Assembly (NCBI GenBank): GCA_016707425.1
Contig: JADJHU010000018.1
Location: 11,980-75,979, forward strand
Source of the DNA: Gammaproteobacteria bacterium
Lineage (GTDB): Bacteria; Pseudomonadota; Gammaproteobacteria; Steroidobacterales; Steroidobacteraceae
Direction of reading: 5' to 3'
Length of the DNA: 64,000 nucleotides
The notes beneath the pieces are model-generated. The model was not told the origin of the DNA. It was given only the letters and a program-made list of their open reading frames with translations, and searched no databases. Positions within the stretch are counted from its first letter, which is position 1; every line of letters starts with the position of its first letter. Below, piece after piece: positions 24,144 to 40,488 of this stretch. Position numbers and translations under genes: made by a program.

Positions 24144-24836
24144 GTGGGGGTGCGGAGCGGGGTCCCGACACCGCGCAGTCTCGCCACGCGCGCCCGGCTC
24201 ATCGGCGCGGCCGAGCGGCTGTTCGCGGAACGCAGCATCGAGGCGGTCTCGCTCAACGAGATCAGCAAGGCCGCCGGACAGCGTAACAGCAGCGTGTGCC
24301 AGTATCACTTCCGCAACAAGCAGGGACTGCTGCGGGCGATTCTCGACAAGCACATCCCAGGCATTGCCACGGCGCGCGAGGTACTTCTCGAGCAGCTCCG
24401 GCGCTCTGGGCGTCCGCCGGGCCTGCGCGCGCTGGTGCGGGCTTTCGTGCAGCCGGTGGCGGCAAAGTTGCATGATGCGGACGGCGGCAGGGAATTCGTG
24501 CGCATCAATGCCCAACTCATTGCGCTGTACACACTGTCGGTGCAGGGTGTGCCGGTCTCGCCGCTGAAGCTGGGGCTGCATGCCGATCGTTTTTTCGAGG
24601 AGCTGCGCCGGGTGCTACGCGCTGCGGGTATTCCCGAGGCGGTCGTGCAGCAACGACTGATGCTGGCCGCGGTGCTCGTGTTCCACGGGCTCGACGATCA
24701 CGTGCGCATGCTGGACGCTGCCAGCCGGCGCGCTGCGACGCGCGGTACCACCCTGTTCATTGCCAATCTCGAGGATTCGCTGGTCGCGCTGCTCTCGGCT
24801 CCCATGCCGGCGGCGAGACGGGCGCTCAACCGCTGA
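24144..24836 (+). CDS. TetR/AcrR family transcriptional regulator
   Basis: HTH region RARLIGAAERLFAERSIEAVSLNEISKAAGQRNSSVCQYHFRNKQGLL. GTG at 24144 follows GGGAGGGAG. It is embedded in the tail of the spurious 725-aa track ORF. Confidence 0.8.
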   Translation: MGVRSGVPTPRSLATRARLIGAAERLFAERSIEAVSLNEISKAAGQRNSSVCQYHFRNKQGLLRAILDKHIPGIATAREVLLEQLRRSGRPPGLRALVRAFVQPVAAKLHDADGGREFVRINAQLIALYTLSVQGVPVSPLKLGLHADRFFEELRRVLRAAGIPEAVVQQRLMLAAVLVFHGLDDHVRMLDAASRRAATRGTTLFIANLEDSLVALLSAPMPAARRALNR

Positions 24837-24855
24837 CCGTCGAAGGAGCACAGCT

Positions 24856-25674: not shown

Positions 25675-25693
25675 ACAGGGTGGAGCAGCCCGC

Positions 25694-26950
25694 ATGCCTC
25701 AGGCCATTCATATCGACGATCTGGCTGCACCGCGCCTGAGCGAGGTGCAGGCCGGGGCACTCGCCTGGGGCGAGACGGTCACGGTCGATTTCAGCGAGCA
25801 TGCCATCCTGGATGCTGCGCGCCAGCGTACCGGTCTCTCGGATTTCGGACCGGAGGATTTTCGGGAACGGCTGCGCGTGCTGCGTGAGGCCTGGGACGGC
25901 GATCCGGAGATCACGCGCTTCCATCGCACGGTGCTGCACGGATATCTGGGGCGCTATGCGGGCAATCGGCTCCTGATCCAGGATGCTCTGAAGCGGCATC
26001 CCGCGATCCTGAACGAGCGCATCGAGCGTCCCCTGATCGTCGTGGGCTTGCCGCGCTCCGGGACCACACATATGGTGAACCTGCTGGCGGCCGACCGCCG
26101 CCTGCACTCGCTGCCACTGTGGGAGTCCTACGAGCCTGTGCCGCTGCCGGGGGAGCCGGCGCCTGGCGACGAGACCGATCCGCGCTTCCGTCGCTGTGCC
26201 GAGGCTTGGGCGGGAATGCAGCAGGCAACCCCCCTCATCGCTTCGATGCACCCGATGAACCCCGAGCACATCCATGAAGAGCTCGAGCTCATGGGGCCGG
26301 ATTTCGCGTCCTACAACTTCGAGTGGCTCGGGCTGACGCCCCGGTGGCGGGATCACTATTTCGCGCACGACCAGACGCCGCACTATGAGTACATGAAGAA
26401 CGTGCTGCGCCTGCTGCAATGGCGCCGGGGAGAGCAGAAGCGCTGGGTGCTGAAATGCCCGCAGCATCTCGAGCAGCTGCCCGTGCTCATGAAGACCTTT
26501 CCCGATGCGACGGTGATCTTCACGCACCGCGACCCCGTGGCAGTGCTCCAGTCCACCGTTACCATGCAGGCCTATACGCAGCGCATGAATCGCCGGCATG
26601 TCGCGCTGCGCGCGCTGATCGACTACTGGAGCGACCGCATCGAGCGCCTGTTGCGCGCTTGCGTACGCGACCGCGATCTCGTGCCCGCGACGCGCAGCCT
26701 CGACTCTCCGTTTCATGTCTTCATGGCTGACCAGATGGGCACCATGGAGCGCGTCTATGCCACGGCCGGGCTCGAACTGGAGGCTCCGGCACGCGGGCAG
26801 CTCATGCGCTATGTGGCCGATCACCCGCGCGGCAAGGAAGGACAGGTGATCTACGATCTGCGCCGGGATTTCGGCGTCGATCCGGCTGCGCTACATGAGC
26901 GTTTCCGCTTCTACTTTGATCGCTTTCCAGTGAAGGCCGAGGTGCGCTGA
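25694..26950 (+). CDS. Sulfotransferase family protein (cytoplasmic, about 418 aa), copy 1
   Basis: Start trimmed to MPQAIHIDDL. PAPS 5'-phosphosulfate loop GLPRSGTTHM, and a THRDP 3'-phosphate-binding region. Paralogous to 41693..42952. Confidence 0.8.
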   Translation: MPQAIHIDDLAAPRLSEVQAGALAWGETVTVDFSEHAILDAARQRTGLSDFGPEDFRERLRVLREAWDGDPEITRFHRTVLHGYLGRYAGNRLLIQDALKRHPAILNERIERPLIVVGLPRSGTTHMVNLLAADRRLHSLPLWESYEPVPLPGEPAPGDETDPRFRRCAEAWAGMQQATPLIASMHPMNPEHIHEELELMGPDFASYNFEWLGLTPRWRDHYFAHDQTPHYEYMKNVLRLLQWRRGEQKRWVLKCPQHLEQLPVLMKTFPDATVIFTHRDPVAVLQSTVTMQAYTQRMNRRHVALRALIDYWSDRIERLLRACVRDRDLVPATRSLDSPFHVFMADQMGTMERVYATAGLELEAPARGQLMRYVADHPRGKEGQVIYDLRRDFGVDPAALHERFRFYFDRFPVKAEVR

Positions 26951-26967
26951 CTCCGGTCGCGGAGGAC

Positions 26968-27696
26968 TCAGGGCTGTGCGAAGCGCCCACGGCCGCAGAA
27001 GCGGTCGACAGCCTCTGCATCGGCCTTGCCGAAGGACTCGAGGTCGAGCGCTACGAAGTGCTGCTCCACCTCGAGACTCCGCTGTACGGCAGGGCGTGCC
27101 CCGATTTCAGTCAACCAGCGCTCGAGGGCAGGGTAGCGCACCGGCACGTCGTCCGATTGCAGCCACGGGAAGAACGCTCTGGCGGTGCGGATCCACGGAA
27201 AGGTCGCGACATCGGCGATCGAGTAGTCCGCGCCCCCAAGAAAGGGTGCCGCGGCGAGACGGGCCTCGAGCACCTTGAAGAGGCGTTTCGTCTCGCTCGC
27301 GTAGCGGTCTCGTCCGTAGTCATTGCCAGGCGGGGCAAAGCGGCAGAAATGCGAGTACTGGCCGAACATCGGGCCAATGGAGGCGATCTGCACCATGAGC
27401 CACTGCTCGACGACGGAACGAGCGGCAGGCGCAGCCGGCAGCAGGCGGCCCGTCTTTGCCGCGAGATACAGCAGGATCGCGCCGCTTTCGAATACCGTGA
27501 AGGGCCTGCCATCCGGGCCCTCGCCATCGACGATCACCGGCACCTTGTTGTTCGGATTCAGGCGGAGGAAGTCGGGGGCAAACTGTTCCCCCGTGGCCAC
27601 GTTCACGTGGTGGGTGCGATAGGGGAGACCGAGCTCCTCGAGCATGATCGTCACCTTGGTGACGTTGGGGCTGCACATGCCGTACAGGTCGATCAT
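26968..27696 (-). CDS. Nu-class glutathione S-transferase (YfcG-like)
   Basis: Start trimmed to MIDLYGMCSPNVTKVTIMLEELGL.... It is co-linear with my recollection of E. coli YfcG (MIDLY..., NPNNK-P-IVD, ESGAILLYLA). Confidence 0.85.
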   Translation of the reverse strand: MIDLYGMCSPNVTKVTIMLEELGLPYRTHHVNVATGEQFAPDFLRLNPNNKVPVIVDGEGPDGRPFTVFESGAILLYLAAKTGRLLPAAPAARSVVEQWLMVQIASIGPMFGQYSHFCRFAPPGNDYGRDRYASETKRLFKVLEARLAAAPFLGGADYSIADVATFPWIRTARAFFPWLQSDDVPVRYPALERWLTEIGARPAVQRSLEVEQHFVALDLESFGKADAEAVDRFCGRGRFAQP

Positions 27697-27738
27697 GGAC
27701 GTAATGTACACTGAACGCCTGGATGCGGGGGGCCATGT

Positions 27739-28176
27739 ATGGATCTCGAGACTCTGATCGCCGAGCGCGAAATTGCACACGCCATCTACGGCTTCGCGCG
27801 CGCGATGGATGAGCGCGACTGGGCGGCGCTCGACGACGTGCTCGTCGAGGAAGCGACGGCGGATCTCGGCGGAGGACCGGTGAGCGGCCGTGCGGCGATC
27901 ATCGCCTTCATGCGCAGTTTTCTCGACGGCTGCGGCCCCACGCAGCATCTGATCGGCAATCTCGTCGTGGAGGTGAGGGGTGAGCGGGCGACGAGCTGCT
28001 GCTACGTGAGCGACATGCACAAGGGGCTCGGCGACAGGGCGCATCTGACCTTCTCGACGCTCGGGGAATACCACGACAGCTGGGTACGCAGAGGCGGGCG
28101 ATGGTGGATGACCCATCGCCGCAAGCTCAACCGCGCGCATCTGGGCTCGATCGAGGTGCTGGGGCCGGGGCCCTGA
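27739..28176 (+). CDS. NTF2/SnoaL-like family protein
   Basis: 145 aa. REIAHAIYGFARAMDERDWAALDDVL...HLIGN pattern of SnoaL_4. Confidence 0.7.
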   Translation: MDLETLIAEREIAHAIYGFARAMDERDWAALDDVLVEEATADLGGGPVSGRAAIIAFMRSFLDGCGPTQHLIGNLVVEVRGERATSCCYVSDMHKGLGDRAHLTFSTLGEYHDSWVRRGGRWWMTHRRKLNRAHLGSIEVLGPGP

Positions 28177-28178
28177 CT

Positions 28179-28203
28179 GACTTCGGGCTCTTCAGGCGAA
28201 GTC
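28179..28203. terminator. Hairpin between convergent genes (weak terminator candidate)
   Basis: GACTTCG-(11 nt)-CGAAGTC lies between the stops at 28176 (+) and 28218 (-). Confidence 0.3.
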
Positions 28204-28217
28204 CGCGCTCGACGGTG

Positions 28218-29969
28218 CTACCTGCGTGGCGTGTACCAGATTGGTGAGGACCATGCACGCTCCTGGATGTGTGGGGCCGTGCCGGAGGGCGGTGGAACAC
28301 CATAACGCGTCGCGAGCAGCGTGGACCAACGCGGGGACGGCACTTCGAGCACACGCACGTAGTAGAGCGAGGCCTGGGCGGGATCGAATTCGGGGTCGCG
28401 CCAGAGTGCCTTCAGCTCGGCGGCACCGCGAGGGTCGCTGCCCTCCTTTCCGCTGACCACCCGCACATCGAAAATCCTCTCGCGGGCGGCACCCCGTTCG
28501 CTCCAGACCTTGATGATCTGCAGGCGCTCCAGCATCGCGCCGTAGGGGTCCTTGCGGGCCCAGACCAGGAACCGTGGACCGGTACCATCCGCGCGGCTCG
28601 GAGCCAGCTCGCCGCCCATCGGCACACCGCTGCCATATGCGACGCCCGCCCACTGCCTGCGATTCAGGATGTCATCCGGGAACGACCACCCGGCGAAGAA
28701 GCGGACCTGGATCTGCGTGCCGGAGGTGGCGAAGGTTTCCTTGCGGCGCAGCGCTGCATAGATGGCGGGTCGAGTGTTCTCTTCGGCCCACACACCTGTC
28801 AGAGCGCCGGAGCTCGTCTCGAGGCGTTGCACACTGCCAGAGCTCGTGTTGCCAGGCCGCAGGCGCGCAGCCGCAGCCTCGCGCGTGAACGCTTCAGCCG
28901 CCGGATCGATACCGATCATGTCGCCCGCATAGGCGTTCTCTGCTGCCGTGCTGACCCCATTGTGAAAATCCGTACCTCCCACGACACCGAAGCTGTAGGG
29001 ATTGATGCCGGTACGTTCAGCGATCACGAGGCCGCGGCCAAACGCCTCGCGCGCGTAACTGCCCGACACCTTGCCCACACGCTCGGAGGCGAGAAGATGA
29101 GCGAAGATCTCGAAATCCGCGAACGGATCCGCGCGGGAGAGCAATGGGTGTGTGTCGGACTGACCCTTGCTCTGGACGATCTCGGAGAGCGGCTCGTTGT
29201 CGACGCGGCTCCTGGCATACGCCGCGTCGATCGGCCTGCCGTCGCTGTCAGTCCAGTCATACATGAGGCCGTTGCTCGCGTTGGCGTTGTGCGGGATCGC
29301 CATCGCCTCGTGGCCCTGGGCGCGAATACGCTCCAGCCACGTCCACAGATCCTCCGGATGCTGCGACTCATACGACGAGAACGGCGCTGGAGGAGCGTGG
29401 TCACGGAAGATGACGTTCCGATGCAGGTTCTGCCCGTCAGGGTAGGAGGTCCATTCGAAGCCGATGAAGGTCGTGAACCGGCCTGGTTCGTAGGCGGCGT
29501 TTGCGGCGTCGATTTCCCGCTGCCACGAGTCGGCAAGGAACTGTCCGAGCGGTATGCCCGGGATCTGCCTGCCAGCCTTGATGAAGCTGACGATCGCGCT
29601 CCAGAAGGGGAATGGGCCCTTCTCGAGGTAGACCTTGCCGAGGTCGCTCCTGAATACGGGACTCCCGGGGTCTGCGAGCTGCGAAGAAAGCCCCAGATTC
29701 TCGACGTGATCCGTGATCGCGATGAAGTCCAGCGGCCGGTTCCGGCGAATCGTGCCCCCCATCCAGGATACCGGCTCCCCTCGGGCAAAGCGGTAGGCGT
29801 CCCCGGGGTCGAGAGTGCGGCCATTGAGAATGAAGGAGTCCAGGGAGAAGCTGGTGTGCAGGTGCAGGTCGCCGAAATAGACCTTGCGCGCTGGCGCCGG
29901 TCGTTCCTGCGCGACTCCGAGGCCGTGCAGCGCCATCACTGCGATGACTGCCAGTGCCGACCGCATCAT
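28218..29969 (-). CDS. DUF3604-family (PHP-like metal-dependent) exported protein
   Basis: Start trimmed to MMRSALAVIAVMALHGLGVAQ (signal peptide). VYFGDLHLHTSFSLDSF and ITDHVENLG are typical DUF3604 motifs. Confidence 0.75.
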   Translation of the reverse strand: MMRSALAVIAVMALHGLGVAQERPAPARKVYFGDLHLHTSFSLDSFILNGRTLDPGDAYRFARGEPVSWMGGTIRRNRPLDFIAITDHVENLGLSSQLADPGSPVFRSDLGKVYLEKGPFPFWSAIVSFIKAGRQIPGIPLGQFLADSWQREIDAANAAYEPGRFTTFIGFEWTSYPDGQNLHRNVIFRDHAPPAPFSSYESQHPEDLWTWLERIRAQGHEAMAIPHNANASNGLMYDWTDSDGRPIDAAYARSRVDNEPLSEIVQSKGQSDTHPLLSRADPFADFEIFAHLLASERVGKVSGSYAREAFGRGLVIAERTGINPYSFGVVGGTDFHNGVSTAAENAYAGDMIGIDPAAEAFTREAAAARLRPGNTSSGSVQRLETSSGALTGVWAEENTRPAIYAALRRKETFATSGTQIQVRFFAGWSFPDDILNRRQWAGVAYGSGVPMGGELAPSRADGTGPRFLVWARKDPYGAMLERLQIIKVWSERGAARERIFDVRVVSGKEGSDPRGAAELKALWRDPEFDPAQASLYYVRVLEVPSPRWSTLLATRYGVPPPSGTAPHIQERAWSSPIWYTPRR

Positions 29970-30589
29970 TGTCTGTGCCGCGCTCCCACGCGTCCTTGGC
30001 GAAGATCGTCCATGATACGGTCGACGATGCGGGCTCTGTAGCGCCGGTTGTAATAGGCCGGATCGACGAACATGTTCCACGCAACGCCGCCTGCCAGATG
30101 CAGCAGCATGTTCGCGGCCTGCAACGGCGCGACGGACGCGGGAATCTCGCGGCATTCGAGGGCCTGCCGCAAGTCCTCACAGAAGCGATCCCGTATTCCG
30201 GCCAGGCCTCCGCTCATATCCAGATGATCGTCCGGGTTCCCGAGCGTCATGCTCCAGAAGTGCACTCGCAGCTTCCAGTCCTGCACCGCGGCGGGTGTGA
30301 GAGGGATGAGGCAGCGCAGGCGCGCATGCGAGGCTGCGAGACCGCGCTTCCTGAGCGTGCACCGGCGCTCCTGCTCGATGAACCGTGCGTTCACCCACTG
30401 GAGCGTCTTGCGGAGGATGTCTTTTTTGTCCGCGAAGTGGTGCTCGACCACTCCCTTCGAAATGCCGCAGCGTTCGGCAATGGCTCGGATTGTCGCCCGT
30501 TCGGGACCGGATTCCCCGATGATCTCCGCGGCCACCTGGGCGATACGGTCCTGCCGGTTTCTCTCATACGTGCGTGGCATGCGGGGCAT
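29966..30589 (-). CDS. TetR/AcrR family transcriptional regulator
   Basis: Start trimmed to MPRMPRTYERNRQDRIAQVAAEIIGESGPERATIRAIAERCGISKGVVEHHFADKKDIL. The stop overlaps the DUF3604 start (ATGA). Confidence 0.85.
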   Translation of the reverse strand: MPRMPRTYERNRQDRIAQVAAEIIGESGPERATIRAIAERCGISKGVVEHHFADKKDILRKTLQWVNARFIEQERRCTLRKRGLAASHARLRCLIPLTPAAVQDWKLRVHFWSMTLGNPDDHLDMSGGLAGIRDRFCEDLRQALECREIPASVAPLQAANMLLHLAGGVAWNMFVDPAYYNRRYRARIVDRIMDDLRQGRVGARHRQ

Positions 30590-30604
30590 GGACACCGGGA
30601 AAAC

Positions 30605-30621
30605 GAATGCGTCTCGCATTC
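30605..30621. promoter_or_regulatory. 17-bp perfect palindrome, candidate TetR operator
   Basis: GAATGCG-TCT-CGCATTC starts 16 nt upstream of the TetR start codon, in the divergent intergenic region shared with the kinase operon. A second palindrome, GACAGCTGTC, lies at 30691-30700. Confidence 0.5.
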
Positions 30622-30773
30622 TAGGCCGTCCGGACGCCGCGCGGAACAGCAGGCAGCGTACTGCAACGGCTCCGTGGTCGGGATAATTAGGACAGCTGTC
30701 TTGTTTCGGACGCTCGTCTCGTCCAGAATCCCGCCACGTCTGAAGGGGGAGCAGGCGCGAGCGCCTGGAGAAC

Positions 30774-32150
30774 TTGCGGGTGTCGGCAATTCTGACCGAG
30801 GCGGATGTCTTCCCGTGGGCCGAGGCACGACTCGGAGGGCGGATTACTGCAGCCACGCGCCAGGGAGGACGCGAATCTGGAGGGCGACCGGGATGGTTCA
30901 TCACCGTCGAGCGGAGCGCGGGTCCCTCCCGGGCGTACATTCGCGGCGATCGCGGCGGCGACTTCGGCTATACGAAGGTCTACGGTCTGCAGCGTGAAGC
31001 GCGGATTCTGAAGCTCCTGCACGAGGAGGGCATTCCCGTTCCCGAGGTCCTGGCAGAGGGTTCGGACCCGAACGCCCTGATCCTGAGCTTCATCCAGGGA
31101 ACAAATGATTTCACGCTGATCGAGAGCCCTGCCGAGCGCGATCGCGTTGCGCGTGACTTCGCGCAGATCATGGCGCGGTGGCATGCGATTCCGGCGGAAA
31201 AATTCATGGAAATCGGTTTCGACCTGCCTCGTGCGCCAGCGGACTATGTGGTGAAGGATCTGGAAGTCTGGGAGAGCGGACATTTTCCGCTGCTGAAGGA
31301 GCCGGTTCCGCTCGTCACGTTTGCGTGTCTCTGGCTGCGACGCAATGTGCCCGAGCTGCCGGCACGGACAGTGCTCGTGCAGGGTGACACCGGGCCCGGC
31401 CAGTTTCTCTTCCGGGACGGCAAGGTGCAGGGCGTGATCGACTGGGAGCTTGCAACCCTCGGCGACCCCATGCGCGAGCTGGCGCACATCCGCACTCGGG
31501 ATGTCTGGTATCCCACCGGCAACCTCCCAAGGTGGTTCCAGTACTACAGTGAGTACTCCGGCGTGCCGCTCGACCTGCCGCGGATACGCTATTACTCGGT
31601 AATTGCCATGCTGACCACGGCGCTCGCCCTCGGGCCCGTCGTGCAGCGTCTGCATCCGCGCACCGACCATGCAGAATGGATCGCACAGGACATATGGTCC
31701 AAGCGCGCGACCGCAGAGGCGCTGGCCGAGGTCACGGGAACGGAGCTCGACCCGGTCGAACTCCCCACGGGGGACTCCCCGCACGTGTCGAGACTCTTCG
31801 ACGTGCTGGAGGAGAATCTGCGCGAGGAGCACCTCCCGCAGATCACCGACGGGTTCCAGCAGCACCGTGTGCGGATGCTGCTTCGGCTGGTGGCACACAT
31901 GCGTAATCTTGGTGAGATCGGTCGGGAAATCGAGGCGCTCGAGCTCGCCGACATGGCGAGCGTGCTCGGCCATGTCCCGAAGAATGTGCGCGCGGGGACG
32001 CGCGATCTCGAGCAGCTGGTTCGGCGCGCGGGTCCTGACCTTGATCAGACGCTGATCCAGTACTTTTACCGCCATTCACTTCGCGAGGGCGCGCTGATGC
32101 GCGGTGGAATGGGCCGGGCGGAGCACGCCCGCACTTCGCCGGTCACCTGA
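30774..32150 (+). CDS. Phosphotransferase (APH/choline-kinase-like) family protein
   Basis: 458 aa. Catalytic-loop region VLVQGDTGPGQFLF and IDWELATLGDP (DxD-type Mg site). The track start is a TTG at 30774; a GTG at 30780 follows GGAGA. Confidence 0.75.
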   Translation: MRVSAILTEADVFPWAEARLGGRITAATRQGGRESGGRPGWFITVERSAGPSRAYIRGDRGGDFGYTKVYGLQREARILKLLHEEGIPVPEVLAEGSDPNALILSFIQGTNDFTLIESPAERDRVARDFAQIMARWHAIPAEKFMEIGFDLPRAPADYVVKDLEVWESGHFPLLKEPVPLVTFACLWLRRNVPELPARTVLVQGDTGPGQFLFRDGKVQGVIDWELATLGDPMRELAHIRTRDVWYPTGNLPRWFQYYSEYSGVPLDLPRIRYYSVIAMLTTALALGPVVQRLHPRTDHAEWIAQDIWSKRATAEALAEVTGTELDPVELPTGDSPHVSRLFDVLEENLREEHLPQITDGFQQHRVRMLLRLVAHMRNLGEIGREIEALELADMASVLGHVPKNVRAGTRDLEQLVRRAGPDLDQTLIQYFYRHSLREGALMRGGMGRAEHARTSPVT

Positions 32151-32163
32151 GGGGAGAAGACTC

Positions 32164-32592
32164 GTGAATGTCGCTCAGGAAACCATCGTCGCGGGCTTTT
32201 TCGAGGCCATCGCGAACGCCGACCGCGAGACGATGCTTGCGCTCATGGACCCGGAAGCACAGTGGGTCGTCCCGAGAACGGCCGTCGCCCCCTATGCTGG
32301 CCGCCATCGAGGTGCGGCGAAAATCGTCGACATGATGCTGCAGGCGACGACGGCGACGTTCCTTCCGGGCACGGTCCGGCACCGCGTGCTGACGCAGATG
32401 AGCGACGCGAGTCGCGTGATGGCGGAAACGGAAATGGTGGCGCGGCAGACCGGCGGCTGCGAATACCGCAATTTCTATGTATTCATCTTCGAATTTCGGG
32501 ACGGCCGGATCTGCGAGATCCGGGAACACGTGGACACCGCCTACGCCATTCAGTTCTTTGGCGCAGGCCAGCAGGCGACGGAGGCACCATGA
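32164..32592 (+). CDS. NTF2/SnoaL-like (ketosteroid-isomerase-like) protein
   Basis: GTG at 32164 (VNVAQETIVAGFFEAIANADRETMLALMDPEAQW...). FIFEFRDGRICEIREHVD is the typical C-terminal strand pair. Confidence 0.7.
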   Translation: MNVAQETIVAGFFEAIANADRETMLALMDPEAQWVVPRTAVAPYAGRHRGAAKIVDMMLQATTATFLPGTVRHRVLTQMSDASRVMAETEMVARQTGGCEYRNFYVFIFEFRDGRICEIREHVDTAYAIQFFGAGQQATEAP

Positions 32593-33920
32593 ATATGGAT
32601 CGAAGAGGCCGCCCGGACGAGGCGGGGACAAATGCGACACCCACCACTTCCCGCCGGACCGTGCTCGAGGCCGGCGGCGTGCTGGGTGCACTGGCGGCCC
32701 TGGCAGGCGGGGCGTCGCCGGCGTTCGCGCAGGCGAGCGGGGGATCCTCGGACGCGCAGATGCTGAAGGCCTTCGACGCTTTCCTCGCGACGCTGCGGAG
32801 ATCGGCGGAGATCGGCTTCGCCCAGAGCGCGTCGCGCCGCCCCTACGATCGCGCGGCGGGGCTGCGGCACATTCTCGACAACCTCTCCCTCGGTCTGTCC
32901 TTCCTTCTGCACAACGCCGACGGGATGCATCCGGAACTGCTCCACTATTTCGATCCCCAGCGCAAGCAGGGTGGAGACAACCAGGATGCGCTCTACGTAG
33001 GCGCGAATCTCGATGGCTCCCAGACGTACCGCCTCCACGGTGATCGGGGCACCGCCCGATTCTTTGCGATCACGGTGGTCGAGAAGGGGCCGACCCCTTT
33101 TGGGGGGCGTTCGAGCGCCTATCTCTTCGGCCACGATATGAAGGTCGAGCCGGACGGCCGCTTCGAGGTGGTCCTGAGCCCCAGGCCTCATCCAGGCAAC
33201 TGGCTCGAACTCGGGCCGAACACACTGCGGGTCACGGTGCGACAGTTCTTCGCGGACTGGGAGAACGAGCGCCCGATGCGCGCCATGATCGAGCGGGTCG
33301 GTCCTCCGGTTCCGCCACCGCTGATCACGGCCGAGACGGTGATGGCGGCGCTCGAGTCCACCGGGGCCTGGATCGAGAGCACCGTGAGCTTCTGGCAGAA
33401 GATGATCGGAATCTTCGCCCGCAAGCCGAACACCTTCCAGCGGTGGCGTGACCTCGACACGACCAAGGTCGACGCGACGCCGGGCGGGGATCCCTGGAAC
33501 TGCTACTGGAGTGTGCCGGAGGACTCGGCGCTCATCGTGCGCGTGCGCCCGCCTCAGTGCAGGTTCTGGAATCTCGAGTTCAACAACCCCTGGTGGGAGA
33601 CCCACGACTACCGGTACCGGCTCTCCGGCACGAACGTGCATCACGCGGTGCTCGAGGAGGATGGGGAACTCATCGCCGTTGTCGCACATGACGACCCGGG
33701 TCTTCCGAACTGGCTCGATCCCGGCGGCTTCACGGAAGGAATGATGGGCATGCGCTGGATGTTCGCCGACACCAGACCTCAGCCGCAGTGCACGCTGGTG
33801 AAGCGCTCGGCGCTCGAGGGGGCATTGCCCGGGAAGATCAGGCGAATCACGCCCGAGCAGCGGCAGGGGCAGCTCGCGGCACGCCACCGCGGGATCTACA
33901 ACCGCTTCGGCTGGATGTGA
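32589..33920 (+). CDS. Unplaced family protein DUFx-1 (Tat-exported)
   Basis: ATGA overlap with the upstream NTF2 gene. Twin-arginine leader TSRRTVLEAGGVLGALAALAGGASPAFAQ. Paralogous to 36161, 40485 and 51519. Confidence 0.75.
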   Translation: MNMDRRGRPDEAGTNATPTTSRRTVLEAGGVLGALAALAGGASPAFAQASGGSSDAQMLKAFDAFLATLRRSAEIGFAQSASRRPYDRAAGLRHILDNLSLGLSFLLHNADGMHPELLHYFDPQRKQGGDNQDALYVGANLDGSQTYRLHGDRGTARFFAITVVEKGPTPFGGRSSAYLFGHDMKVEPDGRFEVVLSPRPHPGNWLELGPNTLRVTVRQFFADWENERPMRAMIERVGPPVPPPLITAETVMAALESTGAWIESTVSFWQKMIGIFARKPNTFQRWRDLDTTKVDATPGGDPWNCYWSVPEDSALIVRVRPPQCRFWNLEFNNPWWETHDYRYRLSGTNVHHAVLEEDGELIAVVAHDDPGLPNWLDPGGFTEGMMGMRWMFADTRPQPQCTLVKRSALEGALPGKIRRITPEQRQGQLAARHRGIYNRFGWM

Positions 33921-33942
33921 TGCAACTCCGACAGACAGGAAT

Positions 33943-36150
33943 ATGGAATCAATGAACAGAACTCTCGTATCGACCCTGCTCGGCCCCGTAGCGCTGGCGC
34001 TTGCCCATGCTGCATCCGGGCAGGCCCCGGGCGACCCGCCGGGGGAAACCACAGGACTCCAGGAAATCGTCGTGACCGCGCAGAAGCGCGAGCAGAATCT
34101 CCAGGACGTGCCGATCGCGATCTCGGCAATCGCCCCCGATTACATCGAGAAGCACCAGATCACGACGATCACGAGCCTGACCAGCCTCGCTCCCAACCTC
34201 AAGATCGATCCCGCCGGGGCCAATCAGACGACCTCGACGATCGCCATCCGGGGCAATGTCCAGGGAAACCCGCAGCTCTACTTCGAACCTTCGGTCGGCC
34301 TGTATCTCGATGGTGTTTACATCGGCAAGGCTCAGGGTTCGATCTTCGATGTCGCGGACATCGAGAGAATCGAGGTGCTCCGCGGACCGCAGGGCACGCT
34401 CTACGGGCGCAATACCGTCGGCGGCGCCGTAAACATCATCGCGAAGAAGCCGAGCGGGGAGGGGGGGAAGGTCGAAGCGTCCTACGGAAACTTCGACTAC
34501 TGGCGCGTCCGGGGGTCGCTCGATCTGCCGCGCTTCGGCTTCTTCAGTGCCAAGCTCTCCGGGCAGATGGCCGAGCGCGCCGGCTTCTACGATGTGGCCG
34601 GCAACCCCGCGACCGACGAGGCACAGACGCTCGACAGCAAGAGCGTCATGCTGCAGCTGCGGGCGGAGCCGACCGAGGCGCTGGTCCTGGATTACGTGTT
34701 CGACCTGAGCGTGGTGGATCAGCAGGCCGGCTACGGCGCTCCGATCAGCGGCGTGGGCACTCTTGCGCCCTACGTGTTTCCGCGGAAGCGGCCGGAGAAC
34801 GTGAGCTTCAACAGCCCGAATTATGAGTATGCCCGCAATCACGGGCATGCACTCACGGCGGCTCTGCGATTCGGGGATGCCGCCACACTGAAGTCGATCA
34901 CCGCCTATCGCGAGCAGACCTACCACGATGCGCTCGATCTCGATGGTTCGCCGCTTTCACTGGGCTTGTCGTCGCGAGACACGCGTTATCGGCAACTCAG
35001 CCAGGAGTTTCAGCTCTCGGGGCGGGCGGCGCGGCTGAACTATGTCGCGGGGCTCTACTATTTCGAAGACGATGGCTTCGTGTTCAACCCGCAGTCCTTT
35101 TTCAATGGGTTCTCGCGTGTGGATTCGCGCTTTGGATTCACGACCAGGGCGTATGCAGCCTACGCACAGGGTGACTACGAGCTGACCGATTCGCTTACGC
35201 TTACGGCGGGTCTGCGCTACACGGACGAGAGGAAGACCATCGAGCGCTATTTCGCACGCCTCGCTCCGGTGCAGGCGGTCGTGATCAATCTGCCCGATGG
35301 CGCGGCGCCGGATGCGAGCTTCTCCAAGCTGTCGCCAACGGCGACGCTCGCTTACAAGATCAATCCGGACGTGAATGTCTATGCACGCTACGCGCAGGGC
35401 TACCGCAGCGGTGGCTTCAACGGAGTTTCCACAACCGTGGCGGATGTCCTGACACAGTTCCAGCCGCAGACACAGAACAGCTATGAGATCGGGCTGAAGT
35501 CCAGGCTGTTCGACAACCATGCGACGCTCAACGTGGCCGCGTTCTGGGATGAGTCGAAGGACCTGCAGCTCTCGGTGTTCCGCGCCGTCACCTCGGCGGC
35601 CAGCACCGTGGTCAATGCCGGTGCCGCACGCGTTCGCGGGATCGAGATTGAGGCCGGCGCGCGGCCGGTCGAATCCCTGTTCCTGCAGGCGGCGTTCGGC
35701 TATCTCGATGCCGAATACAAGCGGTACATCGACGCGGGCGTGGATGTCGCGGACAACCGCTCTTTTCCGTATGCCCCGAAGTACAGCTTCTCGACGAGCG
35801 TGCAGTGGACGGCGTTGCAGCGTGATTTCGGCAAGCTCGACCTGATCGTCGATCTCAGCAGGCTCTCCGGCTACTACCAGTCCGCCGCCGCACTTCGGCC
35901 GGCCAGCCCCACGGAGATCGATGCGCACAACACGCACAGCCCCGGACGCACGATGCTCGATGCGCGGGCGATCCTGAGCGAGTTCCCGATGGGTGGACTC
36001 AAGGGAGAGCTGTCGCTCTGGGGCCGGAATCTCCTGAACGAGGACGACCCGCAGTTCTTCATTGACTTCGGGGCCAATTTCCAGCGTCTCGCCGTCGCTT
36101 ACTTTCCGGACCCTCGTACCTACGGGATGACCTTGAGCGTGCGTTTCTGA
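33943..36150 (+). CDS. TonB-dependent receptor (TBDR2)
   Basis: 735 aa. Signal peptide, LQEIVVTAQKREQNLQDVPIAISAI, IEVLRGPQGTLYGRNT, and C-terminal ...PRTYGMTLSVRF. Confidence 0.9.
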   Translation: MESMNRTLVSTLLGPVALALAHAASGQAPGDPPGETTGLQEIVVTAQKREQNLQDVPIAISAIAPDYIEKHQITTITSLTSLAPNLKIDPAGANQTTSTIAIRGNVQGNPQLYFEPSVGLYLDGVYIGKAQGSIFDVADIERIEVLRGPQGTLYGRNTVGGAVNIIAKKPSGEGGKVEASYGNFDYWRVRGSLDLPRFGFFSAKLSGQMAERAGFYDVAGNPATDEAQTLDSKSVMLQLRAEPTEALVLDYVFDLSVVDQQAGYGAPISGVGTLAPYVFPRKRPENVSFNSPNYEYARNHGHALTAALRFGDAATLKSITAYREQTYHDALDLDGSPLSLGLSSRDTRYRQLSQEFQLSGRAARLNYVAGLYYFEDDGFVFNPQSFFNGFSRVDSRFGFTTRAYAAYAQGDYELTDSLTLTAGLRYTDERKTIERYFARLAPVQAVVINLPDGAAPDASFSKLSPTATLAYKINPDVNVYARYAQGYRSGGFNGVSTTVADVLTQFQPQTQNSYEIGLKSRLFDNHATLNVAAFWDESKDLQLSVFRAVTSAASTVVNAGAARVRGIEIEAGARPVESLFLQAAFGYLDAEYKRYIDAGVDVADNRSFPYAPKYSFSTSVQWTALQRDFGKLDLIVDLSRLSGYYQSAAALRPASPTEIDAHNTHSPGRTMLDARAILSEFPMGGLKGELSLWGRNLLNEDDPQFFIDFGANFQRLAVAYFPDPRTYGMTLSVRF

Positions 36151-36160
36151 GGAACCTCTC

Positions 36161-37525
36161 ATGATCAGGCGAATGAGGGTGAGCGACCGCCACGTGAGGA
36201 GCCGGGTCGCCGCCCTGGCTGCGCTGATCGCTGTTGCGGCGAGCTCGCAACCGTTGGCGGCTGCGAGTGGCTCTGTGCTGGCCACGAAGGAACAGCTTGC
36301 GGGCGAGGCCCTCGCCCTGCGTGTACTGGCGAGTGCGCCGATGCGCAGACAGATCGAGGTACTGGAGGAGACGTATCGGCAGGACGCGCAGGGATCGACT
36401 CCAGCCGGCGGGGCGACGATCCGGCGGGCGGCGGATTCGGTGGCGGCTGCCGCGGCGTATTATGCGGTGATCGACGACGCGGACCGCCCGGTCTTTCTGT
36501 GGATTGGCAATGCCCCACATCGCTGGTTCGGGATCGAGGCACCGCGCGCAGGCTTCGGCATCGAGAATCCCGACAATGTCTACCGCGAGACGACCGTCGA
36601 CAGCGGGGCGCGATACGAGATCCGCGGCCGGGTGCGGCATCCGGGCCCGGCCGAACTGCACTTCGTGGTGATGGACTCGATTCCGGGGACGACGCCTGTA
36701 AGCGTCGAGGGTGGGCAGATACTCACGACGCTGCGCAGCGATGGGATGAAGATTGCCCCGGACGGCTCGTTCACTGTCACCGTGGATCGCGATCCGGCCG
36801 GCGGCCGCTCCAATCACCTCCAGCTGCCGCGCGAGGGCAAGTACCCGCTGCTCGTACGGGACCTGCTCACGGACTGGACCACACAGAAGCCCGTGGCCCT
36901 CGAGATTCGTCGCGTTGCGGGCCCAGCCCTCGCGCGGCCCCGGACCGAGGCCGAGGTGGCCCGGCGCGCCGCGGAGCTGCTGTCGCTGATCGGACCGTAC
37001 TGGGTAGCCTACGACAACCGCTTCGTCTATTCGAAGCCCCGCAATCAGGTCGCTGCGCCTCGTCATCGGCCCGGCGGCCGGGGCTTCTCCAGCAGTGGTC
37101 ATTTCGAGCTCGGCAGCGATGAGGCGCTCGTCGTGACGGTCGATCCACTCGGGGCCCGATCGCTCGGCTTTCAGCTCACCGACCCATGGGGGGTGGCTCT
37201 GGAGTACATCGGGCGGACGAGCAGTCTCAACAATGCCCAGGCGGCGGCGAACCCGGATGGCACGATCACGTTCGTCGTGACGGCCAGCGATCCGGGGGTC
37301 TACAACTGGCTCGACACCGATGCACTTGGATCGGGGATGTTCGCGATCCGCTGGCAGGCGCTGCCCGAGGGTACGAGCGGTGAACGGGCGGTGCGTGACG
37401 CACGAGTCGTGAAGCGCACGCAGCTGGAGGAGGCGCTGCCGGCGGGAACGAGATTCGTCACGCCCGCGCAACGGCGCGCGCAACAGGCCGCGCGGGCACG
37501 GGGCTATGCGCGGCGGCTCGAATGA
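36161..37525 (+). CDS. Unplaced family protein DUFx-2 (Sec-type leader, divergent copy)
   Basis: 454 aa. Leader RVAALAALIAVAASSQPLAAAS. Shares DEALVVTV, DPGVYNWLD, IRW and VTPAQR blocks with the other copies. Confidence 0.7.
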   Translation: MIRRMRVSDRHVRSRVAALAALIAVAASSQPLAAASGSVLATKEQLAGEALALRVLASAPMRRQIEVLEETYRQDAQGSTPAGGATIRRAADSVAAAAAYYAVIDDADRPVFLWIGNAPHRWFGIEAPRAGFGIENPDNVYRETTVDSGARYEIRGRVRHPGPAELHFVVMDSIPGTTPVSVEGGQILTTLRSDGMKIAPDGSFTVTVDRDPAGGRSNHLQLPREGKYPLLVRDLLTDWTTQKPVALEIRRVAGPALARPRTEAEVARRAAELLSLIGPYWVAYDNRFVYSKPRNQVAAPRHRPGGRGFSSSGHFELGSDEALVVTVDPLGARSLGFQLTDPWGVALEYIGRTSSLNNAQAAANPDGTITFVVTASDPGVYNWLDTDALGSGMFAIRWQALPEGTSGERAVRDARVVKRTQLEEALPAGTRFVTPAQRRAQQAARARGYARRLE

Positions 37526-37609
37526 GGCCGGGGTCGCAGGGCTGGTGAGCCGGGGCCGCGGGCGGTGTGGCTGCTATGATCCAGCACGCTCCATGGATGT
37601 CGCCTGCCA

Positions 37610-38213
37610 ATGACCTGCCCGAAGCCACCGACTGCCCGCACGCTGCAGCGCCAGGATACTTTCAGCCGCGTCTACGAGGCGGCGCTGAGCGAGTTCAGGA
37701 GGGTCGGGGTCGAGCAGGCGACCGTGAGCGAGATCTGCCGGCGGGCCGGCGTTGCCAAGGGCACGTTCTTTTTTCATTTCCCCACGAAGGATCACGTGCT
37801 GCTGGCAAGACAGCAGCGGATCTCGGAGGCGATGGCAGAGAGGATCAGTGCGGAGCTCCAGGACGTTCCCGACGCGCGGGCGTTCCTGCAGCGCCTGACC
37901 AAAATCGTCATGGAGGAGCATCAGGCTGTCGGCGATGTCGAGCTCGTGCGCCAGATCAACCTGGCTATCGTCCGCCTGGGGGGTCCCGCGGCTCGGCGTG
38001 GGACACACCGCCTTTGGCGTGGCGCTTGCGAGACAGATCGGCCGGCTCCAGCGGGAGGGAGTGATCCGCTCGGGTGTGAATGCGGCGAGACTCGCCGACT
38101 GCCTGCGGCTCAGCTTCTTCGGGTTTCTGCTCAATCCTCAGTCCTCCTTCGAGACGAGCCGCCGGCAGCTCGCGCTCCTGACGAAACTCCTGGCCGAGGC
38201 TCTCGTCACCTGA
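37610..38213 (+). pseudogene. TetR/AcrR family regulator, +1 frameshift at or near a G6 run (37978-37983)
   Basis: The N-terminal HTH (FSRVYEAALSEFRRVGVEQATVSEICRRAGVAKGTFFFHFPTKDHVL) is in the frame of track ORF 37610. A plausible helical C-terminus (HTAFGVALARQIGRLQREGVIRSGVNAARLADCLRLSFFGFLLNP...) is in the frame of track ORF 37935. The in-frame tail of ORF 37610 is Arg/Pro/Gly junk. Confidence 0.7.
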
Positions 38214-38263
38214 GCCATCCGAAACTCATTGACCGCGGTCAGTCAAGCGCATAGGATGCCCGC

Positions 38264-39439
38264 ATGGACTTCGAGTTCTCTCGTGACGAGCAGTCCTTCC
38301 TGCGGGAGGTGGATGGATTCCTCAGGGCGAACCACGATCCGCGGGTGATGGATCCCGGTCGGGAGAATCTGGCACAGCTGGTGGATACGCCTGAGCGGCG
38401 TACCTTCATGAAGCGACTGGCGGGGCAGGGCTGGCTCGGCATCACCTGGCCGAAGGAGCTCGGCGGCCAGGGCGGGCGGGGATTCTACGAATACCTGCTG
38501 AACGAGAAACTTTCCTCGGTCGGTGCGCCACAGCTCGGCAAGGGCACAGGCGTGGTCGGGAAGACTCTCATCAAAGTCGCGTCGGGGAAACTGGCGGGAG
38601 TTCTCCCCAGGATCCTGAATGCCGAGATCGAATTCGCCATCGGCTACTTCGAGCCGTCGGCCGGCTCGATGCGGCCGCCATGCGTCTCGGCCGAGCGCGC
38701 GGGCGAAGGTTGGGTGCTGAACGGGCAAAAGGTCTTCACGACCTCGGCGCACTTCGCGGACTGGTATTGGGTGGGGGCTCGCACCGATCCGGATGCGCCG
38801 AAGCACCACGGCATTTCGCTCTTTCTGGTATCCATGGACCATCCAGGACTCACGATCCACCCGATGCATACCATCGGTGGTGAACGGACGAATGCGGTCT
38901 TCTTCGACGATGTCTTCGTGCATGACGATTACCGGGTCGGGGAACTGAACAAGGGGTTCCAGTACATTGCCGAAGCGCTCGACCTGGAGCGCTTCGGCAT
39001 GTTCACCTTCTCGCCGATCCGCGCGCGCGTCGAGCTGCTGTGTGATTTCGTGAAGAGCGGACAGCGCGACGGCAAATCCCTGAAGGACGACGCGATCATC
39101 CGGCAGAGAGTGGCTCAGCTCGCGACCGAGTGCGAAGTGGCGCGTCTTCTCGGTGTGCGCTTCGTCGATGCGGCACTCGATGCGAACAGGACGCCCACCA
39201 TCCAGGCGTCCGAGTACAAGCTCTACGCGACGGAATTTTCCCGCCGTCTGGCCGATGCGACGATGGAGATCGTGGGCGTCGGCAGCCAGCTGCTGGCCGG
39301 CGCACCGGACGCGCCGCTCTCGGGTCGTGCTCCGGGCAGCTATACGCTCACGGTGCTCGAGACGATCGGTGGAGGCACCTCCGAGGTGCAGAAGAACATC
39401 ATTGCGACGCGCAAGCATGGCTTGCCGAAGAATTTCTGA
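38264..39439 (+). CDS. Acyl-CoA dehydrogenase family protein
   Basis: 391 aa. GWLGITWPKELGGQG, LNGQKVFTTSA and ETIGGGTSEVQKNIIA. A short out-of-frame-looking patch is described under findings. Confidence 0.85.
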   Translation: MDFEFSRDEQSFLREVDGFLRANHDPRVMDPGRENLAQLVDTPERRTFMKRLAGQGWLGITWPKELGGQGGRGFYEYLLNEKLSSVGAPQLGKGTGVVGKTLIKVASGKLAGVLPRILNAEIEFAIGYFEPSAGSMRPPCVSAERAGEGWVLNGQKVFTTSAHFADWYWVGARTDPDAPKHHGISLFLVSMDHPGLTIHPMHTIGGERTNAVFFDDVFVHDDYRVGELNKGFQYIAEALDLERFGMFTFSPIRARVELLCDFVKSGQRDGKSLKDDAIIRQRVAQLATECEVARLLGVRFVDAALDANRTPTIQASEYKLYATEFSRRLADATMEIVGVGSQLLAGAPDAPLSGRAPGSYTLTVLETIGGGTSEVQKNIIATRKHGLPKNF

Positions 39440-39462
39440 CTCACAGGAGTGTCGATCCAGCC

Positions 39463-40488
39463 ATGAAGGTCTACACCACGGCCCCCCTCGAGGACCCGCG
39501 TCAGGCACGTACGATCTATCCGGAGCTCGAGAGGATCGGTTACGACGGAGTGTTCTCCTTCGAGGCGAAGCACGATCCCTTCGTGCCGCTGGCCGTCGCC
39601 GCCGAGCACACGCAGAAGCTGCGCCTCGGCACGGGCATCGCGATTGCCTTTGCCCGGAATCCCATGAACCTCGCCAATCTGGGCTACGACCTGCAGTCGA
39701 TCACCGGCGGGCGCTTCGTGCTCGGGCTCGGCTCCCAGGTGAAGCCTCACATCGAGAAGCGGTTCAGCTCCGTGTGGTCGCATCCGGCCGAGCGCATGCG
39801 CGAGATCGTGCTCGCCATCAAGGCGATCTGGAGCTGCTGGGAGGGTCGGTCAGAGCTGAACTTCCGCGGCCGGTTCTACACGCACACGATCATGATCCCG
39901 GCCTTCAATCCGGGACCCAATCCCTTCGGGCCGCCGCCCATTCTCACCGGTGGATTCGGCCCGATGATGACCGCCGTGGCCGGTGAGGCGGCCGACGGCT
40001 TCATTGCCCATCCCTTCAATACCCGGCGCTCGCTTCTCGAGAACACGCTGCCGGCGCTCGAGGCGGGACTCGCGAAATCCGGGCGCCAGCGCGCCGACCT
40101 CGAGGTGATCTGCGCGACGCTCGTGGTCACTGCCGCAACCGAGGAGGCGCTCGAAGCCTCAAAGCTCGCCGCACGCAAGCAGCTCGCCTTCTATGGATCG
40201 ACGCCCGCCTATCGACCGACGCTGGCCTGCCACGGGTGGGAAGGCATTCACGGGGAACTGAACCGCCTGTCGAAGGCCGGACGCTGGGACGACATGACGA
40301 GTCTCATCACCGATGACATCCTGAACGAGATCGCGGTGGTCGGCGAACCACACACCATTGCCACGAAGCTGCAGGCGCGCCTCGAGGGGATCGCGGACGG
40401 GGTCAGTCTCACGCACAACCGGTGCCCGGATCCGGGCCATTGGGCCGGTGTCGTCCAGGATCTCAGGAAGCATCGGAAGCCGCGATGA
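39463..40488 (+). CDS. Luciferase-like (LLM) oxidoreductase, probably F420-dependent (MSMEG_2256-like)
   Basis: Start trimmed to MKVYTTAPLED.... ERIGYDGVFSFEAKHDPF, GRFVLGLGSQVKPHIEKRF and EAADGFIAHPF. Confidence 0.8.
   Translation: MKVYTTAPLEDPRQARTIYPELERIGYDGVFSFEAKHDPFVPLAVAAEHTQKLRLGTGIAIAFARNPMNLANLGYDLQSITGGRFVLGLGSQVKPHIEKRFSSVWSHPAERMREIVLAIKAIWSCWEGRSELNFRGRFYTHTIMIPAFNPGPNPFGPPPILTGGFGPMMTAVAGEAADGFIAHPFNTRRSLLENTLPALEAGLAKSGRQRADLEVICATLVVTAATEEALEASKLAARKQLAFYGSTPAYRPTLACHGWEGIHGELNRLSKAGRWDDMTSLITDDILNEIAVVGEPHTIATKLQARLEGIADGVSLTHNRCPDPGHWAGVVQDLRKHRKPR

Follow-up and report, generated by a model that had tools for sequence, protein, structure and literature searches.

TetR-tetO and QacR are divergent units of a TetR repressor and a palindromic operator. 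In the carbohydrate utilization (CUT) loci of Xanthomonas, a TonB-dependent receptor is grouped with a local repressor and with processing proteins, some exported and some cytoplasmic; these loci are dispensable and belong to receptor-rich environmental bacteria (PMC1790865). A seven-gene cassette in a Steroidobacteraceae genome, at 28174-37610 of a 64,000-nucleotide (nt) stretch of contig JADJHU010000018.1 (the window; G+C about 65%), has the same kinds of components and is likewise dispensable in receptor-rich environmental bacteria. Coordinates below are positions in the window and L-numbers are comparison loci or contigs. Unlike the CUT loci, the cassette has no carbohydrate-active enzyme and no inner-membrane transporter; processing would fall to DUF1214, DUF3604, kinase and NTF2-fold proteins, and the receptor lies between two exported paralogues. 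Of the features of a CUT locus or polysaccharide utilization locus it appears to have the receptor and regulator only, which leaves it outside that class. Judged from its gene content, the cassette seems best described as behaving like a TonB-dependent utilization locus with a local repressor, made of uncharacterized families.

We propose, giving the proposal as a whole about an even chance, that the cassette encodes TetR-repressed, TonB-dependent uptake and processing of a substrate that is likely amphiphilic and hydroxylated and handled as a phosphate or sulfate ester. The substrate is probably lipid-like. That the seven genes form one evolutionary and regulatory unit is supported by a precise 9.4-kb block, a recurring gene set and a conserved candidate operator. 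The features of the cassette, with protein lengths in amino acids (aa), are as follows.

28174-37610: the whole cassette, seven genes, 9.4 kb, absent from sister Steroidobacteraceae contigs
28218-29969, minus strand: DUF3604 exported protein, 583 aa (PF12228, E 1.4e-183)
29966-30589, minus strand: TetR-family repressor, 207 aa (Pfam TetR_N, E 6.6e-11, and TetR_C_6)
30605-30621: inverted repeat GAATGCG-TCT-CGCATTC (7+3+7), probably not an operator
30688-30703: candidate operator TAGGAC-AGCT-GTCTTG, 77-92 nt 5' of the kinase GTG
30780-32150, plus strand: APH-fold kinase, cytoplasmic, 456 aa (458 aa if started at TTG 30774; Pfam APH, E 7e-25)
32164-32592, plus strand: SnoaL_2 / NTF2-fold protein, cytoplasmic, 142 aa (PF12680, E 6e-13)
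32589-33920, plus strand: DUF1214-like protein 'a' with a leader of the twin-arginine translocation (Tat) type, 443 aa (Pfam DUF1214, 47.0 bits)
33943-36150, plus strand: TonB-dependent outer-membrane receptor, 735 aa (Pfam Plug and TonB barrel)
36161-37525, plus strand: DUF1214-like protein 'b', Sec-exported, 454 aa (Pfam DUF1214, 29.4 bits)

The cassette is a presence/absence polymorphism within one bacterial family. Its flanks align with contigs labelled Steroidobacteraceae at 76-81% nucleotide identity (blastn). In L019, the segments matching window positions 24001-28173 (L019 2939-7059) and 37611-42945 (L019 7063-12437) are only 3 nt apart where the window has 28174-37610, and L053 has the same empty junction. 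The block is present at the same site, beside SnoaL_4 and glutathione S-transferase (GST) genes, in L097-L099, with protein identities of 68-84%. A comparison of gene order in relatives found the layout kept in these contigs, so the arrangement that the original prediction described is not confined to the window. Hallmarks of a mobile element at the edges were looked for and rejected, as there are neither flanking direct or inverted repeats nor a GC shift across the cassette.

Within the block, the open reading frame (ORF) listing bears out the five co-directional plus-strand genes of the original prediction, with intervals of 13, -4, 22 and 10 nt. The DUF1214a ATG overlaps the SnoaL stop codon (4-nt overlap), and on the other strand the TetR TGA and the DUF3604 ATG share an ATGA at 29966-29969, read directly, which confirms the overlap behind the proposed coupling of these two genes. 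Pfam and the translations agree with the predicted succession of kinase, NTF2-fold protein, exported protein, receptor and exported protein; the family of the two exported copies, which had been recognized as related and left unnamed, is DUF1214 (PF06742). Independent gene calls on a metagenome contig 99.9% identical to the window give the same genes. A GGAG Shine-Dalgarno sequence at 30767-30770, 9 nt before GTG 30780, and a length of 456 aa in the orthologues and in a 99%-identical cluster representative make GTG 30780 the more likely kinase start than TTG 30774; the TetR start codon was set by alignment of orthologues. From the intervals of at most 22 nt and the absence of terminators we infer that the five plus-strand genes share one transcript. 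There are no terminator-like sites at the ends of the cassette genes, and neither the terminator scan nor a sigma-70 promoter scan inside the cassette exceeded shuffle expectation; no stable hairpin lies 3' of DUF1214b (z +1.26). A riboswitch or other RNA element that might name the substrate was looked for and rejected, Rfam giving zero matches at E <=1 in 27500-38500. The earlier statement that no component has a substrate-defining annotation likewise agrees with Pfam, NCBIfam and the literature, and NCBIfam offers no specific name for any of the seven proteins.

The APH kinase, SnoaL_2, DUF1214, TonB-dependent receptor, DUF3604 and TetR families co-occur in at least four other lineages, in differing orders. 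The layouts are given below.

L024, Haliea salexigens DSM 19537: DUF1214a (plus) / TetR-receptor-DUF3604 (minus) / kinase-SnoaL-SnoaL (plus)
L094-96, Pseudomonadales genome: Rotamase_2, kinase, SnoaL, two DUF1214, receptor, DUF3604, TetR and HupE_UreJ_2, on one strand
L093, metagenome: DUF3604-HupE_UreJ_2-unknown-receptor-TetR, divergent to kinase-SnoaL
L089, metagenome: receptor-TetR, divergent to kinase-SnoaL-sulfotransferase-DUF1214
L083, metagenome: kinase, divergent to DUF1214a-TetR
L105, metagenome: kinase-SnoaL beside cytoplasmic DUF1214, short-chain dehydrogenase/reductase (SDR) and sulfotransferase

All seven families are present together in L094-96, at identities to the window proteins of 72% (kinase), 58% (SnoaL), 64% (DUF3604) and 56% (TetR). 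L024 holds six of the cassette families and is bounded by unrelated genes, whereas L093, L089, L083 and L105 hold subsets. The association thus appears to be one of a gene set and not of one fixed order. A DDE_Tnp_1 transposase fragment lies between SnoaL and DUF1214 in L095 (3739-4038) and L096 (3763-4062) and is missing from the near-identical L094. In L024 (5086-9659) the neighbours include a caspase-domain protein, HNH endonucleases and a methyltransferase, which are defence- or toxin-like, and a PEP-CTERM gene also borders the locus; in L093 (11067-18212) the neighbour is a 2381-aa RHS/Tc-toxin-like protein. Such neighbours are consistent with siting of the module in variable genome regions.

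The regulator has a TetR helix-turn-helix domain (PF00440, E 6.6e-11, 42.3 bits against a cut-off of 24), and orthologues 46-68% identical adjoin module genes in L097, L089, L093, L094, L024 and L083. The segment SKGVVEH (residues 54-60), in our reading the recognition helix, does not vary among these orthologues. When the intergenic regions beside orthologous TetR and kinase genes were aligned and scanned, an element TAGGAC-N4-GTC(C/T)T(A/G) was found in the homologous region of seven loci with an orthologous TetR. Its exact form, TAGGAC-N4-GTCCTA, occurs nine times in 1.55 Mb (two copies each in L024, L089, L093 and L060, one in L083), against about 0.1 expected by our estimate from 12 specified bases. 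The copy at 30688-30703 is the sole match in the window, with at most two mismatches, to TAGGACNNNNGTCCTA. L097-99 and L094-96 have the same asymmetric half-sites in the same place, so the two 'mismatches' of the window copy are themselves conserved. The distance to the kinase is similar elsewhere (75-90 nt in L089, 73-88 nt in L093, 95-110 nt in L094), and in a five-way intergenic alignment the element is the only invariant block apart from the kinase start-codon region. A GATAAT -10-like hexamer (30682-30687) directly abuts it. L089 and L093 each have a second copy, located just 5' of a receptor gene. Based on this conservation, 30688-30703 is a candidate TetR-type operator of both divergent operons.

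As in the TetR-tetO and QacR units, the cassette has a divergent regulator and a 16-bp, two-fold symmetric intergenic site near a -10-like hexamer. It differs from them in that the tetR gene appears to share a transcript with the gene of an exported hydrolase, neither TAGGAC-N4-GTCCTA nor its ligand has been described before, and the element also precedes DUF1214 genes in Halieaceae. Copies with zero or one mismatch are located just 5' of DUF1214 genes in L042 (9974), L049 (1787), L063 (487), L064 (9931) and L060 (1342, 2685 and 2932). Four Halieaceae loci have one-mismatch copies ahead of DUF1214 genes, and the Halieaceae loci with such copies also carry a TetR1-like gene, which suggests a wider regulon of this TetR subfamily in Halieaceae. 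The original prediction had pointed to 30605-30621, as a perfect 17-bp palindrome, for a test of TetR binding. That repeat has 7-bp arms around a non-palindromic 3-bp spacer and is equalled in 8.5% of trials when the 184-bp intergenic region is shuffled (window-wide density 0.27 per 184 bp), and no copy of it was found in the corresponding intergenic regions of L097, L094, L089 and L093; it was rejected as an operator on these grounds.

The translation of DUF3604 begins with a Sec signal, MMRSALAVIAVMALHGLGVA, and its AlphaFold2 model (predicted local distance difference test score, pLDDT, 87.3) has a PHP-type barrel followed by a C-terminal beta-sandwich. The best Foldseek match in the PDB is 3E38, a PHP-like metal-dependent phosphoesterase (probability 1.00, E 6e-7), and the PHP domain of 7UG9 also matches (probability 0.99); a sequence search of the PDB matched no chain. 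Ten residues (H36, H38, D44, D87, H88, E172, H183, H227, D334 and H336) are invariant in 50 DUF3604 sequences and presumably map onto the metal ligands of Escherichia coli YcdX; among them are the N-terminal HxH and the C-terminal DxH expected of a di- or tri-metal centre. The protein thus models as an exported PHP-type metallo-phosphoesterase. With 3E38 (BVU_3505) and RNase AM (7UG9) it shares the N-terminal HxH and the full set of His, Asp and Glu ligands, and with 3E38 the succession of PHP barrel and beta-sandwich. Unlike these proteins it is exported to the periplasm, is about 580 aa long with large insertions, and has no sequence match in the PDB. The DUF3604 family is large, with at least 7,985 clusters.

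The two exported DUF1214-like proteins score 47.0 (a) and 29.4 bits (b) against a Pfam DUF1214 cut-off of 25. The leader of DUF1214a reads SRRTVLE, a hydrophobic stretch and AFA/QA, and SRR is kept in the exported clade, while the Pfam TAT_signal score of 17.6 bits is below the cut-off of 22.7. A Sec-type signal peptide is readable in the translation of DUF1214b. An AlphaFold2 model of DUF1214a from a 65-sequence alignment (pLDDT 87.7) superimposes on PDB 6ANS in Foldseek with a target-normalized template-modelling (TM) score of 0.90-0.92, a root-mean-square deviation of 2.2 A and 30% identity; a profile search of PDB sequences finds the same entry at E 3e-75. 6ANS, an uncharacterized protein of Burkholderia cenocepacia, is the sole close solved structure, the Vibrio DUF1254/DUF1214 structures 3U07, 3VB9 and 2P3Y being more distant (Foldseek E 1e-10). 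At 50% identity, the 6ANS-type family reduces to 2,914 representatives. DUF1214b is a paralogue of 'a' (29% identity over 318 aa, E 7e-27), and orthologues of 'b' 54-62% identical directly follow the receptor in L005, L006, L084 and L086. Four full-length paralogues are encoded in the window: a (Tat), b (Sec), d (Tat, VGRRELF) and c (no signal). They appear to have the same fold as 6ANS, VPA0735 (2P3Y/3VB9) and VPA0106 (3U07). They differ from canonical DUF1214/DUF1254 proteins in that none of the four has a Pfam DUF1254 match at E <=0.01, and from 6ANS, VPA0735 and VPA0106 in comprising exported and cytoplasmic paralogues, with exported copies bracketing a TonB-dependent receptor. In DUF1214a, a helix-plus-beta-sandwich arrangement and the motif DG-x-F/L-E-x-h-h-S/H-x-x-PG-NWL are common to both halves of the protein, and an internal duplication is possible, if weakly supported (hhalign E 0.01, probability 4%). 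The literature on DUF1214, DUF1254 and DUF3604 holds incidental mentions only and no function for any relative.

The receptor has the two domains of its class, a plug (PF07715, 66.6 bits) and, after it, the domain of the 22-strand barrel (PF00593, 159 bits). Its translation shows a Sec-type signal ending LALAHA/AS, a TonB-box-like motif EIVVTA near the N-terminus and a terminal SVRF, whose last residue is aromatic. All NCBIfam equivalogs for siderophore, B12, haem and PQQ receptors score far below their cut-offs, and a PDB sequence search found generic transporters only. Within 28174-37610, Pfam detects no glycoside hydrolase. Related loci also encode a membrane protein of the HupE_UreJ_2 family and a chaperone of the Rotamase_2 family, which in the window are encoded only about 20 kb downstream of the cassette. 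The original prediction spoke of a self-contained uptake-and-processing unit; the unit agrees with the block, its recurrence and the conserved site, but 'self-contained' is doubtful because the cassette, unlike the related loci, has no inner-membrane component.

The cytoplasmic pair consists of the kinase and the SnoaL_2 protein. The kinase matches Pfam APH (PF01636) with 88.6 bits, and its best PDB sequence matches are the kinase domain of ACAD11 (8V3V, 1e-12) and 3DXP. ACAD10/11-type kinases act on 4-hydroxyacyl-CoAs (PMC12440821, PMC11342911), and their substrates include 1-O-alkylglycerols; in the C. thermarum enzyme N219 is required for activity (PMC13596139). In the phmmer alignment, QGD and DWE of the cassette kinase align with HGD and DWE of ACAD11, the alpha-C Glu (QREAR) is aligned, and the Arg of AYIRGDR, which would be the beta-3 Arg that pairs with it, is one position off that of ACAD11 YVLRKK. 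QGDTGPGQ and DWE are invariant in nine orthologues, in which the catalytic Asp is retained. The cassette kinase thus shares with the ACAD10 and ACAD11 domains the APH fold, the DWE metal-binding motif, the catalytic Asp and DWELxTxGxP. In contrast to them, its similarity is only about E 1e-12, its loop is QGDxxxxQ and not H(G/Y)DxxxxN, it has an extra, conserved helical C-terminal domain of about 180 aa, and its partner is SnoaL_2, with no acyl-CoA dehydrogenase (ACAD) fused to it or elsewhere in the cassette. Judged from the sequence, two defining ACAD10/11 features, the metal-binding Asn of the catalytic loop and the dehydrogenase partner that eliminates the phosphate, therefore seem to be missing. 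With 226 clusters at E <=1e-20, nearly all of them metagenomic, the kinase subfamily is small.

The SnoaL_2 protein is the partner of the kinase in seven loci, and follows it in L097, L094, L089, L093, L024 and L105. Its PDB matches are uncharacterized NTF2-like proteins only. An ACAD gene does lie nearby (38264-39439), outside the cassette, and is present in genomes without the kinase. Coupling of the kinase to this ACAD in the manner of LvaA/LvaC was considered and rejected, as the ACAD operon is unchanged in genomes without the cassette.

Beyond the cassette, DUF1214 genes keep company with enzymes of ester metabolism. Of 80 genome loci drawn from Halieaceae, Sphingomonadales, Steroidobacteraceae and Rhodocyclaceae, 65 have a Sulfotransfer_3 gene no more than 1.5 kb from DUF1214, and DUF1214 paralogues adjoin kinase-SnoaL in L089 and L105. 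In L100-L102, DUF3604 belongs to a cluster of DUF1214 and receptor-Rotamase_2-HupE_UreJ_2-DUF3604, a common setting. At 51519-59608 the window has the Tat-exported DUF1214d (VGRRELF), two type-I sulfatases, Rotamase_2 and HupE_UreJ_2, with the sulfatases sitting where L100-L102 have DUF3604. Sulfatases and DUF3604 thus appear interchangeable on one chassis. The place of DUF3604 is taken in L084 (5539-6615), and also in L086, by an unrelated protein, an exported phosphatase of the CX5R type (PF13350, with the motif HCSAGQDRTG and an N-terminal signal peptide), whose gene lies 10 nt beyond the triad of DUF1214a, receptor and DUF1214b. Given the sulfotransferase, DUF3604, sulfatase and CX5R phosphatase contexts, DUF1214-type proteins look to be encoded repeatedly beside enzymes that form or cleave esters of phosphate and sulfate.

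At 40485-42952 of the window, a cytoplasmic DUF1214 gene is followed by Sulfotransfer_3, and its ATG appears to overlap the stop codon of a luciferase-like monooxygenase gene. Many lipid and ester catabolism genes lie at 18690-27693 and 38264-51199. The surroundings include a pyrroloquinoline quinone (PQQ) alcohol dehydrogenase, an alkyl sulfatase of the metallo-beta-lactamase type, two sulfotransferases, luciferase-like monooxygenases and an acyl-CoA dehydrogenase, as well as SDRs, a family III CoA-transferase, an Old-Yellow-Enzyme-type reductase, a major facilitator superfamily transporter and a GST.

Under the proposed scheme, TetR bound to 30688-30703 would, without ligand, shut both tetR-DUF3604 (leftward) and kinase-SnoaL-DUF1214a-receptor-DUF1214b (rightward), and would be released by the substrate or a derivative of it. 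The receptor would then move the compound through the outer membrane. In the periplasm, DUF1214a (Tat) and DUF1214b (Sec) may bind it or pass it on, and DUF3604, as an exported PHP-type metallo-hydrolase, would take off an ester group. This hydrolysis is proposed because of the PHP ligands and fold of DUF3604 and because a CX5R phosphatase or sulfatases can occupy its slot. The less polar product might pass the inner membrane unaided or via a carrier with its gene outside the cassette, for which relatives offer HupE_UreJ_2. Once in the cytoplasm, it would be phosphorylated on a hydroxyl by the ACAD10/11-like kinase, and the NTF2-fold SnoaL protein may act on the phosphorylated product by isomerization or elimination. 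We infer all of these biochemical steps, the substrate class and the direction of flow, and any single step should be trusted far less than the scheme as a whole.

A number of observations weigh against this proposal. The kinase has the catalytic loop QGDxxxxQ in place of HGDxxxxN in all nine orthologues (His to Gln and Asn to Gln), so its activity is only assumed. Pfam finds no inner-membrane transporter in 28174-37610. That DUF1214a, a Tat-exported protein, has a 51% identical counterpart in the cytoplasm (paralogue c) would suit an enzyme no less than a shuttle in the periplasm. The beta-sandwich of DUF3604 has a weak resemblance to lipid-binding UNC119/RhoGDI (E about 1e-3, TM 0.35-0.45). 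The receptors of L024, L089, L093 and L094 are only 30-38% identical to that of the window, so the outer-membrane step may differ between versions. The literature holds no experimental work on DUF1214, DUF3604 or this kinase subfamily. Lastly, the DUF1214a-receptor-DUF1214b triad also occurs on its own, which is taken up below.

A more specific version of the proposal, which we regard as doubtful, is that the cassette represents an undescribed modular route from periplasm to cytoplasm for lipid-like phosphate or sulfate esters. DUF1214 would be the family that recognizes the esters, with exported forms beside receptors and esterases and cytoplasmic forms beside sulfotransferases and kinases. 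In DUF3604 one would have an exported PHP-fold esterase of a new class, able to trade places with type-I sulfatases within a chassis made up of receptor, Rotamase_2, HupE_UreJ_2 and DUF1214. The QGD kinase and its NTF2 partner would replace the pair of kinase and dehydrogenase that serves for 4-hydroxy acids.

The cassette could instead be two independent functions that happen to abut, a TetR/DUF3604/kinase/SnoaL unit and a DUF1214-receptor-DUF1214 uptake triad gained from a sphingomonad-like source, co-transcribed only through the chance of its insertion and with no common substrate. By its nearest relatives the cassette does appear to be a mosaic of two sub-modules. The nearest relatives of the regulator, kinase, SnoaL and DUF3604 part are gammaproteobacterial versions, while the nearest free-standing triads are in Sphingomonas laterariae, a Caenibius genome and metagenome contigs (58%, 67% and 61% identity). 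These sphingomonad triads have a different TetR and no kinase, SnoaL or DUF3604, and the TAGGAC operator is absent upstream of them; the two halves of the cassette can thus work apart. The window receptor is also closer to the triad receptors of L005, L006 and L084 (63-67% identity) than to the kinase-linked receptors. However, DUF1214 and a receptor accompany kinase, SnoaL, TetR and DUF3604 independently in L024, L094 and L089, and DUF1214 and DUF3604 also occur together in L100-L102. In the window the triad is tied to SnoaL by the 4-nt overlap, and L097 retains the junction at 78-84% identity. With this evidence on both sides, two unrelated functions seem unlikely.

Remodelling or biosynthesis of an envelope lipid, in which the kinase and sulfotransferases modify an endogenous lipid that DUF1214 and DUF3604 handle in the periplasm, is quite unlikely. 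TonB-dependent receptors are a protein class known for import, and this receptor, together with repressor control, does not suit such a role. The cassette is also dispensable, being missing from sister genomes, and Pfam finds no acyltransferase or glycosyltransferase in the module. On the other hand, the pairing of DUF1214 with sulfotransferases is widespread, and ACAD10-type kinases act in ether-lipid salvage (PMC13596139). A kinase homologue in L104 moreover adjoins lpxK, lpxB and msbA-like genes.

Acquisition of a metal of the Ni, Co or Zn type would have the receptor import a chelate, HupE_UreJ_2 of the relatives cross the inner membrane and DUF3604 bind the metal. HupE_UreJ_2 does stand beside DUF3604 and a receptor in L093, L094 and L100-L102, DUF3604 has a multi-histidine metal site, and the top NCBIfam subfamily match of the receptor is TIGR01783, 'siderophore receptor', although at 158 bits it is under the cut-off of 223.5. 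The regulator, however, is of the TetR and not the Fur, Zur or NikR type, the linkage with kinase, SnoaL, sulfotransferases and sulfatases has no role in metal uptake, and the window cassette lacks HupE_UreJ_2, all of which makes this explanation improbable. Resistance to an antibiotic or xenobiotic, through inactivation of a toxic compound by a TetR-controlled APH-type phosphotransferase, is highly improbable despite the Pfam APH match, weak NCBIfam matches to APH(3'), viomycin and capreomycin kinases and a layout like the divergent TetR arrangement of mphR-mph-type units, since those matches reach 19-38 bits where the cut-offs are 205-400, ACAD11 and 3DXP, not resistance kinases, are the kinase's closest relatives of solved structure, and an import receptor with exported accessories is the opposite of what resistance needs.

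The cassette alone overturns no current view of such loci, and an uptake and processing system of this kind is not surprising in principle. If the proposal of TetR-repressed uptake and processing is right, it would provide the first functional handles on three orphan families, DUF3604, 6ANS-type DUF1214 and the ACAD10-like kinase subfamily. TAGGAC-N4-GTCCTA would serve as a regulon marker for finding the rest of the system, and cultured carriers, Haliea salexigens DSM 19537 for the gene set and Sphingomonas laterariae LNB2 for the triad, make the proposal testable. It would also show that receptor-rich Steroidobacteraceae, Halieaceae and sphingomonads take up a compound class by way of these genes.

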